62,297 bases of DNA, filler included, from 11 parts of 11 records of this genome joined end to end with filler, not necessarily neighbours in it; one strand, 5' to 3'; numbered from the whole stretch's first letter, positions 3,519 through 58,787 are shown. Numbers and translations are program-made. The notes: generated by a model not told the origin, from the letters alone.

Positions 3519-3618
3519 NNNNNNNNNNNNNNNNNNNNNNNNNNNNNNNNNNNNNNNNNNNNTTAATTAATTAANNNNNNNNNNNNNNNNNNNNNNNNNN
3601 NNNNNNNNNNNNNNNNNN
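3519..3618. other. Artificial contig spacer
   Basis: 100 nt of N with central TTAATTAATTAA; same spacer at 9758-9857, 14301-14400, 21904-22003, 28077-28176, 34903-35002, 40181-40280, 43704-43803, 52033-52132 and 58688-58787. Confidence 0.99.
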
Positions 3619-9021: not shown

Positions 9022-10092
9022 TCTAAACATGATCAATTTAATCTGATGCCAATCATAATTTAAGGTGAATAAGGGAAATCGTCAAAATAAAAATTTGATG
9101 CTTACATTACAAGTGTCCGATTGTCCGTGTCATGGTGACATGGTCCGTGTGCAGTATTGTACGAACGAGTACGAACGTGAGTAAACGTGAGCAAGGTTCA
9201 TAAATGTACACTCTAGTGATTCTACTAGGCGACCAAGCTGTGCGGCTGCAGCCCCTATTTACTATAGATCCAAGGGATCCACACTTGTGTCGGCCCAAAG
9301 CGATTTGTTACCCGGTCACCCATTAGTCTAGAAATATTGTGGGTCCCAAAAATTCGAAATTTGACTCCGTGAACGCTAGCGGCGGGGCGAGCGTATGAGC
9401 ACGTTGACATGATGCATAGATGCGATTTAGAGCTCTTGATTGGGTTTGTGTTGAAATTGTTTATGAATCGAAGCCCGATTAATCGAAACAGTACCCTGGA
9501 ATTAATTGCGTTTAAGTGGAAGCAGCGAACCCACCCGGCCGGGAAAGGCTAGAAAGCACCTTTGCGGTAGCCTAAACTCGGCCCACGTGCGTCGAAGCCA
9601 ACTGATGAGCAAGTGGAAGCGGAGCGGGATTGTTATCTAGGAGAAAATGCAATGCATCCATTAATTATCGGGCTGTGACTAGTCACCTCGGTAGAAGATT
9701 TACTAGTCTATACCATTAAATAGAGCTATTTCACTTTATACAAAGATCCAATTGGAGNNNNNNNNNNNNNNNNNNNNNNNNNNNNNNNNNNNNNNNNNNN
9801 NTTAATTAATTAANNNNNNNNNNNNNNNNNNNNNNNNNNNNNNNNNNNNNNNNNNNNACTGCGCCGCCGGCCGTGCGGGCAAGGCATCGGCGACGCGGAT
9901 TTCAGCGTGCGCTGAGATTGCCTCAACGGCTCAACCGTGCTGCCGTTATTACGGGGTCATGTAGTACATTTATCAGATTTGATTTCAAGTCAGGGGCCCT
10001 GATGAACCTGAGGCTCACATGACCTAGGTTTCATACGGTCATTATATTTAATTAAGACACTCAGATAGTTATTACAAGTCATGTATGTTCAA

Positions 10093-14300: not shown

Positions 14301-14400
14301 NNNNNNNNNNNNNNNNNNNNNNNNNNNNNNNNNNNNNNNNNNNNTTAATTAATTAANNNNNNNNNNNNNNNNNNNNNNNNNNNNNNNNNNNNNNNNNNNN

Positions 14401-21903: not shown

Positions 21904-22003
21904 NNNNNNNNNNNNNNNNNNNNNNNNNNNNNNNNNNNNNNNNNNNNTTAATTAATTAANNNNNNNNNNNNNNNNNNNNNNNNNNNNNNNNNNNNNNNNN
22001 NNN

Positions 22004-28076: not shown

Positions 28077-28176
28077 NNNNNNNNNNNNNNNNNNNNNNNN
28101 NNNNNNNNNNNNNNNNNNNNTTAATTAATTAANNNNNNNNNNNNNNNNNNNNNNNNNNNNNNNNNNNNNNNNNNNN

Positions 28177-34902: not shown

Positions 34903-35002
34903 NNNNNNNNNNNNNNNNNNNNNNNNNNNNNNNNNNNNNNNNNNNNTTAATTAATTAANNNNNNNNNNNNNNNNNNNNNNNNNNNNNNNNNNNNNNNNNN
35001 NN

Positions 35003-40033: not shown

Positions 40034-40280
40034 TACAAAGTTCTTAGTTCGCACACAATTTTCTAAACATAGGAGCTAGGAGCTCACTAGTAGGAATTGA
40101 CGTCCATGTACTCGGAGACGCAATTATAAGGTCGTTAAAAAAAAAATCCGTGGTATTAATGGTGTTAAGGAGTTCCGCCANNNNNNNNNNNNNNNNNNNN
40201 NNNNNNNNNNNNNNNNNNNNNNNNTTAATTAATTAANNNNNNNNNNNNNNNNNNNNNNNNNNNNNNNNNNNNNNNNNNNN

Positions 40281-43297: not shown

Positions 43298-43833
43298 GGC
43301 GCTCCGTTACTTTATCCTTGTACACGTCCAATCGTTGCGGGCGTTGGAGACGTACTTTGTGTGGTTATTTTAGAAGTCAGGTGCCAGGTCAGCCCCACCT
43401 AAGCCCCACCATACGTACAGCCTCTTTTATTGAATTATACGTACTTGAATTCGTACATCCGCATACATGTAGTACGTACGTACAATACTGGTACTATTAC
43501 CGGTACTATCAAGCTTAAGAGAACAATGCCATGATTTTGCCGGCAGCACGGCCTGGTGGCAGCGAACACACTCAAGGCACGTACAGGTCCAAAGTCTAAG
43601 TGGAAGAGAAGACGCGAAGAGCCAACACCCCAAGCACTGGATTTTATTATTCCAACACAGCCAGCTCCAATCGCTGTAACATTAGCAAATCAATCTGAAT
43701 TAANNNNNNNNNNNNNNNNNNNNNNNNNNNNNNNNNNNNNNNNNNNNTTAATTAATTAANNNNNNNNNNNNNNNNNNNNNNNNNNNNNNNNNNNNNNNNN
43801 NNNCCTGAGTCTAGGTCTGTACTAGACAAGCAC

Positions 43834-52032: not shown

Positions 52033-52132
52033 NNNNNNNNNNNNNNNNNNNNNNNNNNNNNNNNNNNNNNNNNNNNTTAATTAATTAANNNNNNNNNNNN
52101 NNNNNNNNNNNNNNNNNNNNNNNNNNNNNNNN

Positions 52133-55100
52133 TCTTGTTGTATAGAGCTGAGCGGATAAAGGGCGAATCCCGAAAGGTCTCTTTCTGATGCACCGTGCGC
52201 AGTTGACAGTGTTCTCTCTGGACACGAGAAGTTGGTAGGCTTGACAGCCCCGTTCCACTGTGAGCCATCGCCACGCCCGATGTCCACTTGAGCAGAGTGC
52301 GTATGAGACCCGTTTGGCCACTCAGTCGACCAATGCAAAGCACCAAATCCATACTCCGGCCGTGGCTGGCCTTCATTCTTGTCGTCGCACTTGGGTTCCA
52401 CCCCACGATTGCAGAACAAAGCAAGGGCTTTCAGAAGCTGGAAAAAGAACTCGCCAAGGTGCGGAGTATCGTATCTTAGAACCGGCTTCGCTGTCTTTGG
52501 AACTCGTCGAATCTCTGTTCGTGCAGGTTTCAGCCTCACCCAGATCTGGTGGAGGGTGCTGTTGGCACAGTTGTTGCAGTAATCATCCACCTCCCACCGA
52601 CTGCCATGACCTCGTATGCTCCAGTGGGCGCTGCCCCACACGTAGAATGGGAAATTAGTCATCCCAGCTCCGTTTGATCCATCACAATGAGTACATGATC
52701 CGGGTAGGTTAGCTGAGTGACCCTCCAGAGTTGTAAATCCAGTCGTCCAAGACGAAGGCTTGATATCGCCTGTACCATCAAATATGAGCTGAAGAACTTG
52801 CTGTGCAGATGTCTTGAAGTGAATCTTTCGAGAATGTGCCGAAGTCTGTCCGTAGAAACGGGCTTCAGAGATATCTTCCAGTCGACAGCCAGGCAGATCA
52901 GCCGCGTTATTGTGTGCGTAACCCTCAGTTGCTGAAAGTGGGAACTCGTGCTCGTTCCTTAGATCCTCGTTCTCGCCTCCTTTGTGCCTGTATGCACACA
53001 GAAGAATCCAGCCTCCACCATCCGTTTCGTGGTCCATGACAACCTTGGTGTCACGACGGTGTCCATTGACGCGTACGTATGCCTGATGGCCGGCAGATAT
53101 AGCACGGGCTTCGACCTCTTGTTTGGGCTTGGGTAAGCAGCCATTGACAAATGGCAGCTGGGAACGCCACCACTCCCCCATCAATGCATGGGACGCATAG
53201 AATCCAGTCGAGCCATCTTGCAATTTCTCGGCCTTGTAGTAATTCAAGGCATTGGCTATTTGATCTGAATCGGCTAGTGGTGCGATCCAATCATCGAGAT
53301 CAGGCAGGCCAGGAATGGTGCCAGGCTTGTGTGAAGCCAGCACTGCTAGCATTGCCTCAAGAAGCTGATCGTGCTTGCCACGTGGCTGCACTTTGCTACC
53401 CAATGTTGACCTCCATGAGCAATAGAGCTGAGCCAATCTGTGGCTATCGTCTGCTCCACGGCCTGCAAAATCCAGGGATATCCTGCCTGTGAGCACTTCG
53501 TACATCCAGAGAAACCCCGCCTGGACCCAGACATTCTCAGCATAGCGCAGGCTCAGCTTAGGGCTAAGCGCACCTTCTTGCTAATGCCATTGTATGCATC
53601 GCTGACAAACTTTTGGAGCACACCATTTTTTCCATAGAGTGCATCGCCTGTAATCGGCTGCCCGTTGTTGCGCAAGCTGAGGTCGTAATAGCACTTATTG
53701 TGCCCAAAGATGTCACAGCGGCAGCCACGGTGGTCACGAGGAAGGTCCTCGCTGCCGGAGAAATACAGGTCGTTTTGGGAGAGAAGCTGCCGGTACTCAT
53801 CTAGCACACACTTGGGCGCCCCTGACTGACAGAAGTGCTGCCAACCCTCCATTCCATTGGTTCCGACGCCGCTTTGTTCCACATCCAAGTACTCTGGACC
53901 GGTGCGAACTCTCCTTGACTCGGGTCCCATCACCTACCGCGACAATCCACTTAAGCTAGGCAGGGCACACGGGTAATGGCACCTTACGGAAATGCTCGAA
54001 TGATGTTACCTCCGCGCCATTCTCATTAAGGTCGCTCGCTGCCTGCTCCAATAGCTCGTATTCATCTTGCGACATTTGGGCTTCTACCATTCCAAAGGGC
54101 TCTTTGATGCACTCACTTGCATTCATTGGTGCCCCCCCGGGACAATTTCCGCGTTCCCCTGCCATTGATGGCTCTCTCAAGAGTTTCACGAGCCACGCAA
54201 CTTCGCGCGTGGTGGGGCTGTTGCGTAACCCAACTGCAATCTGCCGCTGTATATCCCTTCGCATCACAAAGTTCATCGAAGGGTCGTTGTCATCAATCAG
54301 TTGGAGGAGCAATTTTTCCATGTCTCCCAAAGGTAGATCAGTGGATGACGCCTTGGCTGCAAGCATGCCCTCTTGCCATCGGCGATGGATCATGAAACAG
54401 TGAGTCAGATACCTGCAAAGTCACAGTTGTTATACACACATCGGCGGTTGTCGACACTCATCGACCCCCGTTGACGGCTTGTCGACAGTTTCGACAGGCG
54501 ACGACAGTTTGTCGCCAATGACTGTCGACAGGCTCGACAACTGTCGACAGGCGACGGGAACGACGCGCAGGCTTGTGCCTATGATCCTCTAATCTATGCA
54601 TCCGAAACGACACTAGTCGACAAGACAGGTGTGAGGGTCTAGACATCCAAAGGCTGATCAATAGGCGACTTACAGAGCTGCCCCAATGGATGAAGGCTCG
54701 AGCCAGCATCTGGAGGTGTGTATCTTGTACATGTAACTTCGCGGCCCCTTGGCACTCAGCCAGGCTCCATCTGAGCGACACGCCTTCCAAAATTGGCCCC
54801 AAGGAGCCTGGCTGAGCGTGACGGTCCGCAGAGGACACGAGTTGACCAGCACTGCCGTGTGCCCGGTATGGTCTCCGAGCAGCACGTAGTATGGGATTGA
54901 GGCACACAGTTTTTCTATTCTCGAGCATGGTTTCTCCGTCTCTGCTGAGCCATCTGAGTCAGTCAACAGGAAGTATCCATCGTGCTCTTCGCAGTACCAC
55001 CGTAGCCGATTGTCGTACTTAGCTCCAACTCGGAAAGTCATACCAAGCCGAGGCAACTCAGCAACGCATGGCACGTTGTCGGAGTTGAGCCAAATGAGGA

Positions 55101-58100
55101 CGTAGGACAGATCTTCGAGTCGGGAGATGAGATTGGCAAAGCCTTGCAAATCGTTTGGTGTCTTGAGTGGATCAAAAAGCATCATCCTTTGGGCTGACAG
55201 CGCCTCGATGCGCTCGACCAAGGGTCCCGATTCGGTTATGGTGATGTGCAGGCTGTAGCTGTACCTTTCAACATCAGATCCTGGCCTTCTCTCGCCATAA
55301 ATTGTGCTGAACTGCGAGTGCTGCGCCGAAAAGTCTGTCGCATGATAAGCAGAAGAAGACTCTGCTGGGCTTTTCCAGAAGGTGAAGTTGTCGACAAGGC
55401 AATCTGGGATCAGTCCACGCATCCGACTCTCTGGCAAGCACAGCTGGTGTGGCTGCTCACTATTCATTCGGTTCCGCGAGACAAGCACACTCAGCTTCCC
55501 TAGCATCTTTTCCGGTGGGAACACATTTCCGACCGCATTCTCAACAATCTGAATGGGAGGAGAGTCTTTGCGGGACACATCGCGAGGTATTGAGCTACCA
55601 GCATGACTTATGGTTGCATTGGATGTGTAGCTGATGTGCTTGTAAACCTCTCTTCCCATCTCGCACAGCCAATATACTGTAGCTAGCTGCCATTCCTTAT
55701 TGCAGACCACAACGCCCCAGCACGTAGTGTGGCCCGTAGGATCACCCTCCTTGTTTCCAGGAGCAGCAGCTCGGCGGATGAGTACCTCAACTTCAGACAG
55801 CTCTGAGCAGTCGTCGCGAGGCAGCAGAACATCGCAACCATCGTAACGGGTCACCCCTTTCATTTCTGGTCGGAGTACACCAATAAGCAGTGCTGCAAGC
55901 CAATTGAGCTCGGGATTGTTACACATATCCATCAAGGCTTCCGCAGGCGGCTTGGTCTCCCATGTTTCCAGCACGTCCACGGCACCCAGGAGCACCTCAA
56001 CACGATGCCTTTGCTGCCAAGCCCACCCGCAATGACCTTGTCCCAGGTGCAGTCCACCACCATTATTGCATGCATGGTAGAACATCGCATTTGGATCCAC
56101 CACATTGTAATCTGCTACGCTAGTATTCCACAGATGTTCTAATACCTTGTCTGGACCTTCCCATGCCTCTGCAATTTTCTCTCTTGTCGCGTCTCCCCCT
56201 GTTGCTGGCTTTGAGAACGCTTTGCCTGCACGCAGACACTGGATTGGCCACGAGTGTGGCTTGCACTTAGCTCCATAGTCGTGGTCGTCAATAGTTCTGA
56301 TCCAAATCTGCGAGGAACACGCGGCAAGCGCGGCAATTTTGTCTTGATCAACTTTGAAAGCCCCTTCGGCCCAGATTGCTGTCCAGATTGTCGCCTTTTC
56401 TGTTGGTTGCGACGAGTCAATGCCATCGTCAGAGTCTGTGTCGATAAGCTCATTGAGGCGCTCCATCCTTGTAATCTCATCGAGGCCGCCGCGATTTCCG
56501 CATGTTCGACTTTGTTCTAAACCTCTATAGAGTTCAATGTCCAGCTGCCGTTGGATGCGATCTCCTTGCTTGGCCGACATTGAGCTAGGCAGGCCTGCCG
56601 TCACAACTCCTCCAGGTATGCTTGATGTGCACAAGGCGTGTTGGCCGTTTTCTTGGAGAGTAGAGTCCAGGACAGAGCTGCGCAGTGAGCTGAGAGAGAA
56701 TGCAGCACCTGGGCCTCCGTATCTCTTTCCTCGAAACAACACAGGATCGTCTGCTGTCAGCATTGATGCTGGAAGGCCTCTGATACAAAACAGCGCCTCA
56801 GCAGAGAGGCCTGCCCTGATTGTCAAATCTTCAGGGTCCGGTTCAAGGCCATCGACAGTAAGATATACGCTGACACACGGTGGGCTGGGCACTGCATCTC
56901 TGTTAGTGTGTTGAGGACCGTGCTTGGGCATTTCCCATTGCCCATACACCGGATTCTCCGCCTCGCAGGTGTAATAGTAATCGCAGGTCCTGCCGATCCG
57001 CCATTCGCCACTGTTACGCCATAATTCCAGATTATTGTGAGTACATTTGTACATAGGATATCCGCCGTAATCACTCGGAAGTCTTTCGTACTTGCCATCG
57101 ACGTAGTCACAGCCGCTACCCGCCACCAAGAGCACGTTACAAAGCTCAATCGTGAGCCGTGAATCCTCCTTGGACCTTGTCACAAAGTGTCCAGGATAAT
57201 TCACTGACTCAAAGGCAACTGCACTGCTGGCACTTTGGTAACCAATGTACACACATTTCCCACCGCCGTTTTTCAGAATGTCGCGTGGCAAAACATTGAA
57301 TCCTCCTATCTTCGTGCCTGATTTGGGCTTGTCGAACTTCAAGAAGGAGACTGATTCGATGGGAGGACCAACAGATGGCTCATGGGTGACCCATAGATAG
57401 TTGTAAGAACCACCTGCACCCTCGTTCAGATCCTGAGCAACCTTAGTGTAGCCTGGTGGCCCCTGCTGATTCCTCTCATCGCCTGTGGTGAGCGCAAAGC
57501 CACGGATTGCTTCATATGGATCAAAAGTCCACTTATACCTCGGAAACATGTAAGCGCCCCCAGAACCAGCCCTCACATCTTCTTCTCCGGTGTCCTCCTT
57601 TGTGAATTCTACATTCTTTAGGAAACGCCGAGGACCGATGCTAGAGCGATCCCGAATGTGGAATGAAGCATCAGCCTTGTACAAGTCGCTGTCCTCGTTT
57701 TTGTGCAGCCATAACTTATATCCTGCATGCCTCAGGTAATGATCAGGCCGATCAACCGACTGCAGGGACACAGACTCTGTGTGATTGCTGAGTCCAGGGA
57801 CAATGTTGAGCAGGAGTTTTCCCCCAGTCGACAGCACGAATGCCTTGGGGCCATCCAGCCCAAGGGCACCATCCATGGCACTTGAAACGAGAATCACACG
57901 CTGTGTTTTGTTACCTTGCATACCCTCGTTTTGCGGCATGTCATTCAGCATAAAGACGTCGCTGACATCAGGTGGGCGCCAATACACAAGGTCGATATCA
58001 GAATCTGGTACACGATACGTTTCACATTCAGAAGTTGTGTGTTCGTCAACCATGATACAAAGGGGCTGGTCGAAACCAAAGACAAGCTGAGCAGATTCAC

Positions 58101-58687
58101 TGGTGCTTATCTTTTCAGGCATTAGCCCCAGTACTGCGTGTCCAAAGGTGACTTTAATCAAATTGAGATCAACACAGCAATCTCCAGCAACAAGAATACC
58201 AGCACCAGGATTGTTCTCTTCTTCCACAACAATGGGCTGCAACATATTTGATACCTTGATTGGCGAGTCTGTGATGGCAAATTCGCCAGAGCTACCAGGT
58301 GTCGTGGCTTCCACGAAGTCAACTGAGGTTATGTGGTGCCCTGGCCTGGCAAACAAGCGAACTTGGTTGCGACATGGCAACTGCCCTGACGAGCCATGGA
58401 GCTCGTATCGTTTACCGTTGAGCGTGGTGAAGCAAAGGTCGCCACCAAGATAGCTTGCTTGGGCGTCCCAGTCAATCTGGATCAAGTAGTCATCCTCTTC
58501 AATAACAAATGCAGGGACTTCGTGACCACCGTCTCCTCCCAGAGTCACCTTCACACCTGAGGCTTCCTTGTACCACATCTGATCCACCATTCCACCAGTC
58601 TTGCCTCCGATCTCGACAATCCGCTTCTGTTGCTTCTCGACATGGAAAGACCCAGATCCGGTTGTGGGTATAGCACTGACATCCTCG
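52133..58687 (-). CDS. Internal part of a giant protein of the DUF3638/DUF3645-associated type with jacalin-like, AbfB/CBM42-like, MABP-like and fibrinogen-like inserts; 3 introns
   Basis: Scaffold motifs RGLIPDCLVDNFTFW, SRLEDLSYVLIW..ELPRLGMTF, KIHTS..AALYL, GFLWMYEVLTG; ORFs 54670, 53956, 53553 and 52081 join via GT-AG introns. Confidence 0.7.
54413..54673 (-). repeat. 261-nt intron filled with degenerate (GT)CGAC repeats
   Basis: GTAAGT...TTTGCAG on the minus strand restores AAL|YLTH; many TGTCGACA/TCGAC/CGAC units. Confidence 0.85.
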
Positions 58688-58787
58688 NNNNNNNNNNNNN
58701 NNNNNNNNNNNNNNNNNNNNNNNNNNNNNNNTTAATTAATTAANNNNNNNNNNNNNNNNNNNNNNNNNNNNNNNNNNNNNNNNNNNN

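Follow-up and report, generated by a model that had tools for sequence, protein, structure and literature searches.

The window analysed here is a stretch of 62,297 bases made of 11 contigs joined by N44-TTAATTAATTAA-N44 spacers, and we focused on one whole, spacer-flanked contig of 6,555 bp (52133..58687; guanine-cytosine (GC) content 0.524), the source of which is an uncultured marine protist. All coding signal of this contig lies on the minus strand and is that of one giant gene, cut at both contig ends and composed of four exons and three GT-AG introns. The joined exons amount to 2,054 codons with zero stops and represent an internal piece of a giant protein, in agreement with a first-pass annotation of this DNA that had described a frame-joined protein of more than 2000 residues. 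The anatomy of the protein and its placement in the family of DUF3638/DUF3645 giants, where a conserved scaffold is accompanied here by an array of lectin-type modules, are held with high confidence. As the stretch consists of separate contigs joined by spacers, the genes on adjoining contigs are not genomic neighbours of this one. The gene model is as follows:

54674..58687, minus strand: exon A, read in frame from 58686, 1,337 codons plus 2 bases, open at the contig end
54413..54673, minus strand: intron 1, 261 nt, GTAAGT...TTGCAG
54010..54412, minus strand: exon 2, a split codon followed by 134 codons; match to the family scaffold over its residues 1-40
53934..54009, minus strand: intron 2, 76 nt, GTAACA...GGTAG
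53574..53933, minus strand: exon 3, 120 codons
53521..53573, minus strand: intron 3, 53 nt, GTGCGC...TCCAG
52133..53520, minus strand: exon 4, 462 codons, open at the contig end
55307..55360, minus strand: candidate extra in-frame intron of 54 nt (GT...AG) within exon A, coding 18 residues that are missing from all 102 aligned relatives

The splice at intron 1 is supported, since a family profile (the inter-region profile described below) continues directly across the junction between exons A and 2. For intron 3 the acceptor at 53521 was chosen because the residues immediately downstream of it match the family profile; an acceptor at 53463 was rejected, as it puts exon 4 out of frame. The segment 55307-55360 may be a fourth intron. 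In-frame introns of this kind escape a reading based on open reading frames, and others in the N-terminal modules may blur the detection of domains there. The introns of 53-54 nt were also seen to have weak donors (GTGCGC at 53573 and GTCTTC at 55360).

Along the translated protein, from its N-terminal to its C-terminal side, the following features were delineated:

58252..58635, minus strand: probable jacalin-like beta-prism module (residues ~18-145)
57652..57813, minus strand: AbfB/CBM42 beta-trefoil repeat (residues 292-345; Pfam PF05270, E 6.1e-15)
57232..57528, minus strand: MABP-like beta-prism between the two trefoil repeats (residues ~387-485)
57142..57225, minus strand: second, partial AbfB trefoil repeat (residues ~488-515; BLASTP to P0158, E 2e-4; a second Pfam stretch)
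56887..57126, minus strand: small W/Y/G-rich domain of no named family (residues ~521-600)
55972..56397, minus strand: mobile domain of ~140 residues, called domain (a) here, with no Pfam family (residues ~764-905)
54676..55944, minus strand: family scaffold, comprising the end of a block S3 and a 'region b' (residues ~915-1337)
53413..53520, minus strand: scaffold match at the start of exon 4 (inter-region profile positions 248-282; domain E 6e-4 over 4 targets)
52525..53097, minus strand: divergent domain like the fibrinogen-related domains (FReDs), in exon 4, inserted in the scaffold
52135..52467, minus strand: scaffold resuming after the FReD-like insert, where the final 333 bases of the contig correspond to residues 2796-2909 of the giant P0018 (tblastn E 1.8e-5; profile positions 384-426)

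The scaffold carries the family placement. Residues 640-1337 were searched with HMMER against 1.84 billion representatives and gave 214 matches at E<=0.001, which fell in two groups. The core of region b (residues ~990-1337) matched deep inside giant proteins of 1.8-6.5 thousand residues, the largest of 6,552, with the metagenomic proteins P0012 (5,026 residues; 2.2e-21) and P0018 (5,624 residues) scoring best and P0023 at 3.2e-13. Among the 26 such giants scanned with Pfam, PF12340 (DUF3638) was found in 18 (7/11 and 11/15 in the two sets scanned) and PF12359 (DUF3645) in 15; seven of the eight giants that have no PF12340 end less than about 720 residues after region b, short of the expected start of DUF3638, and the eighth, P0100, continues for 926. 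DUF3638 begins 591-987 residues downstream of region b in 17 relatives, and in 15 of the 26 DUF3645 lies further downstream. The inter-region profile, built from the sequence between region b and DUF3638 of 17 giants, matched, in collinear order, the tail of exon A, then exon 2 and then exon 4 (E 1.2e-3 for exon 2 residues 1-40, 6e-4 for exon 4 residues 20-56 and 0.09 for residues 445-480); each of these matches is weak and comes from a very small search space, and it is the collinearity that gives them weight. With region b, the collinear match and the frequency of PF12340 among the matching giants, the DUF3638/DUF3645-type scaffold named in the first-pass annotation was recovered. A mismatch between this scaffold and DUF3638-type proteins had been set beforehand as grounds for giving the reading up; the scaffold does match them.

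Between region b and the contig end lie 717 residues, ~290 of them the FReD-like insert, and the last scaffold match of the contig is at position 426 of the 702-position inter-region profile. Since the scaffold profile stops there at the contig end, DUF3638 and DUF3645 should lie beyond the 3' end of the contig; neither PF12340 nor PF12359 had a Pfam match on the contig exons. An NCBIfam search gave nothing relevant. Among proteins of 735-2,340 residues exon A had no close relative beyond AbfB-only matches, shorter proteins likewise matched only in AbfB, and a metagenome scan with exon A returned no loci and one with a smaller alignment (A5) returned four. A structural model of region b (598 residues, from a 97-sequence alignment) reached a predicted local distance difference test (pLDDT) value of ~30, probably because the alignment was poor, and Foldseek with this low-confidence model found nothing in the PDB or in a viral library; a PDB sequence search with a DUF3638-bearing relative, P0046, likewise found nothing relevant.

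The module of the array that is inserted within the scaffold is the FReD-like domain of exon 4, an insert of ~290 residues with respect to the scaffold profile and to P0018, which sits between region b and the expected start of DUF3638. FReDs are classic glycan and acetyl-group recognition domains of innate immunity. The family profile of this domain (A1) matched tachylectin-5A at 1.5e-8 and fibrinogen beta at 5e-8 in the PDB, with 56 sequences at E<=1 and over ~50 residues only, and matched XEEL/intelectin, FIBCD1, tenascin and ficolins over the same first ~50 residues; as a single sequence the domain found nothing meaningful in the PDB. In the model of this domain (mean pLDDT 62) the fold is that of a FReD, for Foldseek ranks 1-49 were all FReDs (probability 0.82-0.99, E down to 1e-3), as were the VIA-wide top 7 (Z 6.4-5.3, 143-159 aligned residues, root-mean-square deviation 3.9-4.5), the next row having Z 3.2. 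The fibrinogen-like domain of the first-pass annotation is thereby substantiated through its profile and its modelled fold, with a Pfam match of only E 0.05. Since its PF00147 score (13.8 bits, profile positions 17-54 only) falls below the gathering cut-off of 22, we call the domain 'FReD-like, divergent' and not a member of the Pfam family.

Six homologues of the FReD-like domain (P0162-P0167; E 1.6e-42 to 7.8e-11) were identified, three of them with PF00147. Two A-domain cysteine columns are present in all six, and both are absent in the contig copy. The C-terminal ~180 residues follow a separate consensus common to these six mostly bacterial-looking proteins, which form a distinct FReD-related family with the consensus GHSANLPG...MT.FPFY...HW.IR....RWEVDDY...STLHQVWVR. 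Most of the homologues resemble secreted bacterial proteins and at least four of the six look secreted, P0166 with a PF18962 sorting tail; a family of this kind may be the origin of the eukaryotic copy. With ficolins, tachylectin-5A, FIBCD1 and intelectins the domain shares the N-terminal A/B part with the DxxTDGGGW motif and the overall fold, whereas it differs from them in its missing A-domain cysteines and in its place within a giant protein that is probably intracellular, where theirs stand at the head of a secreted oligomer.

The AbfB-like trefoil repeats that had been proposed were confirmed. The full repeat scored 56 bits against the PF05270 gathering cut-off of 22.8, matched PDB entry 3kmv at 3.3e-9 and shared 50% identity with P0158. 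One full and one partial repeat are recognisable, and they are split by the MABP-like module. In MVB12, a subunit of ESCRT-I, the MABP domain binds membranes. Our module, also predicted earlier, matched Mpf2Ba1 in a phmmer search of the PDB (8b6u at 1.2e-8 and 8b6v at 1.6e-8, over residues 398-485 and a second, weaker stretch), and Pfam placed no family on it. It resembles the MABP prisms of MVB12 and of the C-terminal domain of Mpf2Ba1 (8b6u) over ~90 residues, including a GY..V..DLN.GAGG motif, and differs from them in sitting between AbfB trefoil repeats.

The jacalin-like module, also proposed earlier, is a probable one. In its favour, a profile of 12 sequences (11 bacterial domains passing PF01419 and the jacalin domain of the relative P0115) gave E 3.3e-5 (12.3 bits, 4 targets) over residues 18-101, and the ESM Atlas placed a jacalin cluster second at 0.87, which we take as a lead only. 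The same profile in hhalign reached a probability of 41% (E 2.8e-4, 79 columns in register), and a profile of five sequences only 5%. Against it, the module had no Pfam match even at E<=10. It also had no meaningful PDB sequence match, its BLASTP comparison with the jacalin-bearing relative P0115 was not significant and a scan of prokaryote genomes with it returned nothing. Residues ~18-145 are accordingly best read as a probable jacalin-like module.

Two further modules belong to no named family. The W/Y/G-rich domain, noticed already in the first pass, carries the motif G.Y...W..(W)RIG.T.DY.Y and is 36% identical to a marine metagenome contig (L056), where an open reading frame of 363 residues (L056:3-1094, plus strand) encodes it directly after domain (a). 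Since it follows domain (a) in this independent reading frame, it is a real and mobile small domain. Its Atlas leads (0.90-0.91) were unnamed eukaryotic clusters, the few members of which with a recorded phylum were haptophytes, and it had no meaningful PDB sequence match. A look-alike stretch in P0018 was not significant (BLASTP E 1.6), the resemblance being by eye only.

Domain (a), which the first-pass annotation had not distinguished, shares ~50% identity with many short metagenomic proteins and was modelled at a pLDDT of ~97. It carries the motif W.GP...L..LW....YHAC.N..GLHL....C.W....EV and occurs also in P0001-P0011, P0016, P0041, P0131 and L054-L057. Its best structural matches were FReD cores, weak ones (Z 4.5-3.5); a comparison of its profile with that of the FReD-like family gave no relation, and its profile found nothing meaningful in the PDB. 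It co-occurs with EF-hands, with ankyrin repeats and, in P0011, with LamG and a ligand-gated channel. P0003 represents a P0018-like giant in which domain (a), at residues 268-411, comes after the C-terminal EF-hand region, its residues 1-204 being homologous to the end of P0018 (3e-24); L054 has the same arrangement, and in L055 the matches to the P0018 end and to domain (a) lie ~3 kb apart. By these sequence matches, domain (a) appears in two different slots of the family, internal here and C-terminal in a P0018-like relative. Both domain (a) and the W/Y/G-rich domain are unnamed mobile families worth defining.

We asked how far the assembly itself can be trusted. Logan contigs from four aquatic or marine metagenome studies held pieces 95-100% identical to our contig (20 of 25 at >=99%); they are short (150-408 bp) and of low depth, and parts of the 6,555-bp contig are uncovered. 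At the 20 variant sites in these matching contigs, 13 changes were synonymous and 7 nonsynonymous, and 15 fell at third codon positions. As the variants are mostly synonymous or at third positions, purifying selection is indicated in the frames used, in the lectin and scaffold parts alike. At each codon position the GC content stays even over the length of the gene, and the N-terminal array and the scaffold correlate in their codon usage (r 0.72). A chimeric join is unlikely in view of the variant pattern, the even composition and the correlated codon usage.

The more general alternative is an artefact, with a lectin gene and a DUF3638-family gene fused in assembly, or else a decaying pseudogene. 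The low coverage of this metagenome contig, the boundaries missed by the short independent contigs and the divergence near 58643 of a contig from run X1 would fit it. Set against these are the single 1,337-codon frame, which spans the lectin modules and runs into the scaffold without a stop, the FReD-like module that is also present inside the scaffold downstream, the even composition, the 13 synonymous changes among 20 variants and the like modules in other members (jacalin in P0115, domain (a) in a P0018-like giant), and we consider an artefact very improbable. From 58643 onward the contig from run X1 agrees with the contig end, and over the 129 letters preceding that point it differs, which could reflect an assembly error, a paralogous gene or an allele that carries another module.

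Taking the protein as one gene product, we looked at where its modules stand with respect to the scaffold of the relatives. These share three blocks upstream of region b, counted in residues from it: S1 (~-1435 to -860), S2 (-630 to -350) and S3 (-220 to -10). Between the end of S2 and region b lie 74-1,248 residues (22 relatives), with the largest gaps in P0018, P0077 and P0012, so that the slot upstream of S3 and region b is very variable in length. In the contig protein homology to the relatives begins at ~residue 915, in S3, and four add-on modules together with an unassigned stretch (residues 146-250) occupy at least 915 residues upstream of S3. The modules had been described as interleaved with the scaffold. 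This holds for the FReD-like domain, which alone is shown inside recognisable scaffold, but not for the others, which lie upstream of the first scaffold block on the contig. The S2-to-b gaps of P0018, P0012 and P0077 yielded in Pfam only a sub-threshold CBM35-like match in P0018 (residues ~1249-1305, E 0.0034). By eye, the P0018 gap also contains the W/Y/G-like stretch mentioned above and F5/8C-like stretches, the latter common to P0012.

The relatives differ widely in what they carry. In the 26 giants Pfam found add-ons at differing positions, namely thioredoxin-like, ubiquitin, UBA, SH3, WWE, EF-hand and Vps62 domains and the RanBP zinc finger; P0115 has a jacalin domain that passes Pfam and P0034 a sub-threshold F5/8C. 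As the add-ons of relatives differ, the slots vary and domain (a) occurs in two of them, module exchange across the family is supported by these comparisons, and the earlier expectation that inserted domains vary while the scaffold is conserved holds at this level, across the family and among distant species. A comparable multi-lectin array was found by Pfam in none of the 26 relatives scanned whole nor in the three gap pieces. The contig protein is like the DUF3638/DUF3645 giants in its homologous, collinear region b and parts of exons 2 and 4, its giant size, the absence of a transmembrane segment and its add-ons in variable slots; it differs from those scanned in its array of lectin-type modules and in that S1 and S2 were not found on the contig. 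It is a new architectural variant of a catalogued, little-studied family, known from one truncated contig.

No 19-residue window of the 2,054 residues reaches a Kyte-Doolittle mean of 1.6, and hence no transmembrane segment is seen, as had been noted in the first pass. Because of this, of the cytosolic-type add-ons of the relatives and of the lost cysteine pair of the FReD-like domain, we regard the giant protein as probably cytosolic. It could instead be a secreted or surface protein, with a signal peptide on the missing N-terminus and a lectin array acting outside the cell or in the lumen of the food vacuole as an adhesin or as a prey-capture or digestion factor. The closest FReD-like homologues, with signal-like N-termini and the PF18962 tail in P0166, agree with this, as do the signal-like hydrophobic stretches with which some members of the domain (a) family begin (P0006, P0095, P0105) and the position of the gene's 5' end off the contig. 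The ubiquitin, UBA, SH3, WWE, EF-hand and RanBP zinc finger of the scaffold relatives are however cytosolic features, the contig copy has lost both cysteines that the FReD-like homologues keep and 2,054 residues pass without a transmembrane segment, which makes a secreted protein improbable.

In a cytosolic protein, the lectin-type and MABP-type modules would act as targeting or sensing heads. They would bring the conserved core to glycans or lipids that are out of place, for example on food vacuoles that have been damaged or on cells that invade or were ingested, and the protein would work much as the cytosolic galectins that mark ruptured vacuoles. That the modules serve to target glycans or membranes we favour slightly. 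A specific role in sensing damage or prey, suggested by analogy, is tentative and should be read as doubtful. For the whole, a cytosolic multi-lectin giant that senses misplaced glycans or lipids, which is the best explanation we can offer, belief and doubt are about balanced.

Several points weigh against this explanation. Exons 2 and 4 match the scaffold weakly (E 1e-3 to 0.09, only 4 targets), and the presence of DUF3638 and DUF3645 in the gene is predicted from collinearity only. Profiles of S1 (19 relatives) and S2 (23 relatives) found nothing significant in the six frames of the contig; either these blocks lie beyond the 5' end, which would put the lectin array in the variable slot, or they are absent from the protein. 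The jacalin call is not decisive (no Pfam match, hhalign 41%), and the putative P subdomain of the FReD-like domain, which would hold the Ca2+ and ligand site (model residues 150-188), has a pLDDT below 50 and no sequence alignment to solved P subdomains. The independent contigs of 150-408 bp fail to bridge every module boundary, no RNA dataset was among the sequencing runs that match the contig, and with its GC of 0.52 against 0.57-0.63 for most of its neighbours the assignment of the contig to the same organism is unsure. The N-terminus is off the contig, leaving room for a signal peptide, and in other organisms most domains of the FReD, CBM42 and jacalin types are found outside the cell or are secreted. 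Lastly, the link of the family to immunity or membrane damage is one of analogy, as is the first-pass comparison with immune receptors and ruptured phagosomes; the first-pass interpretation is supported in part.

The anatomical evidence fits equally a housekeeping role, in which a cytosolic giant is tethered by its modules to an ordinary polysaccharide or glycoconjugate (storage glucan granules, scale or covering material, or misfolded glycoproteins returned from the endoplasmic reticulum) with no sensing of damage, prey or pathogens. Modules of carbohydrate-binding type are found on cytosolic proteins that bind storage polysaccharide, such as AMPK beta and laforin, and the add-ons of the relatives are general signalling ones (EF-hand, SH3, thioredoxin), with no dedicated immune domains among them. 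Several lectin types of different expected specificity along with a prism of membrane-binding type would nevertheless suit broad recognition better than a single storage polymer, and we consider housekeeping targeting unlikely, while giving it real weight.

For the sensing of misplaced glycans there are known systems with which the giant can be compared. The F-box lectins FBXO2 and FBXO27 are cytosolic sensors of glycan damage. According to two papers, damage to a vacuole exposes its luminal glycans to cytosolic galectins, which recognise them, and Dictyostelium is without galectins, discoidins being only proposed analogues (PMC5758549; PMC10476172). The logic proposed for our protein is like that described there for galectin-3/-8/-9 with NDP52, where a cytosolic lectin detects normally luminal glycans and recruits an effector machine (PMC5758549, PMC10476172). 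It differs from the galectin and F-box lectin sensors in having neither a galectin nor an F-box domain and in using other lectin folds; the comparison is one of working and not of family membership. Damaged-vacuole sensing in protists without galectins is an open question (PMC5758549). The contig protein is a candidate, and only that, for such sensing.

Plant NLRs with integrated domains (NLR-IDs) and the giant ATPase/E3 RNF213 have a large conserved core, which in the NLR-IDs is combined with exchangeable recognition modules. The DUF3638/DUF3645 giants resemble these receptors in having a conserved core and, across the family, variable add-ons in fixed slots. They differ in that Pfam found no NB-ARC, NACHT, LRR, WD or TPR repeats, dynein-like AAA or RING on the contig exons and in that the variation is seen across distant species, so that here too it is the logic which is compared.

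DUF3638/DUF3645 giants occur across eukaryotes and the literature on them is sparse. The part of a Tetrahymena proteogenomics paper that mentions DUF3638 calls its mechanism undefined (PMC12615304), a large DUF3638 gene family appears in a figure legend of a study on microsporidia (PMC5423893), and a passage of a Plasmodiophora preprint counts a DUF3638 protein among the most polymorphic predicted effectors (10.64898/2026.10.14.759018). The passages returned by a full-text search on DUF3638 described no lectin-bearing member. A paper on a viral-tegument-like deubiquitinase, considered as covering these giants, was dropped, as DUF3645, DUF6606, 'giant' and 'ATPase' do not occur in its text. A member with several types of carbohydrate- or membrane-binding modules offers a testable handle on the targets of at least part of the family, and the family may diversify through the variable slots mapped in this analysis. 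It is a speculative and quite unlikely generalisation that the DUF3638/DUF3645 giants are modular cytosolic sensor-effectors throughout eukaryotes, with at least two fixed slots (S2-S3, region b-DUF3638, C-terminal) for exchangeable ligand-binding domains, and that the contig member is a multi-lectin detector of ruptured food vacuoles, prey or parasites in a marine predatory protist. If true, a multi-lectin giant would fill in such a protist the role that galectins have in animals.

On the other 10 contigs of the window no paralog of the giant gene was found. Most of them have a GC content of 0.57-0.63 and two others ~0.50-0.525 (whole stretch 0.50-0.63), and from this range the bin may mix organisms or genome compartments. 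The spacers lie at the following positions:

3519-3618, 9758-9857, 14301-14400, 21904-22003, 28077-28176, 34903-35002, 40181-40280, 43704-43803, 52033-52132 and 58688-58787: the ten spacers between contigs

Among the relatives, a family giant of Babesia duncani (XP_067804707.1) bears the name 'bifunctional EF-Hand 1' at NCBI and 'ubiquitinyl hydrolase 1' in UniRef. A region b relative of 1,916 residues, P0044, also has a reverse-transcriptase domain (PF00078, E 3.2e-9), which probably stems from an inserted retroelement or a chimeric gene prediction.

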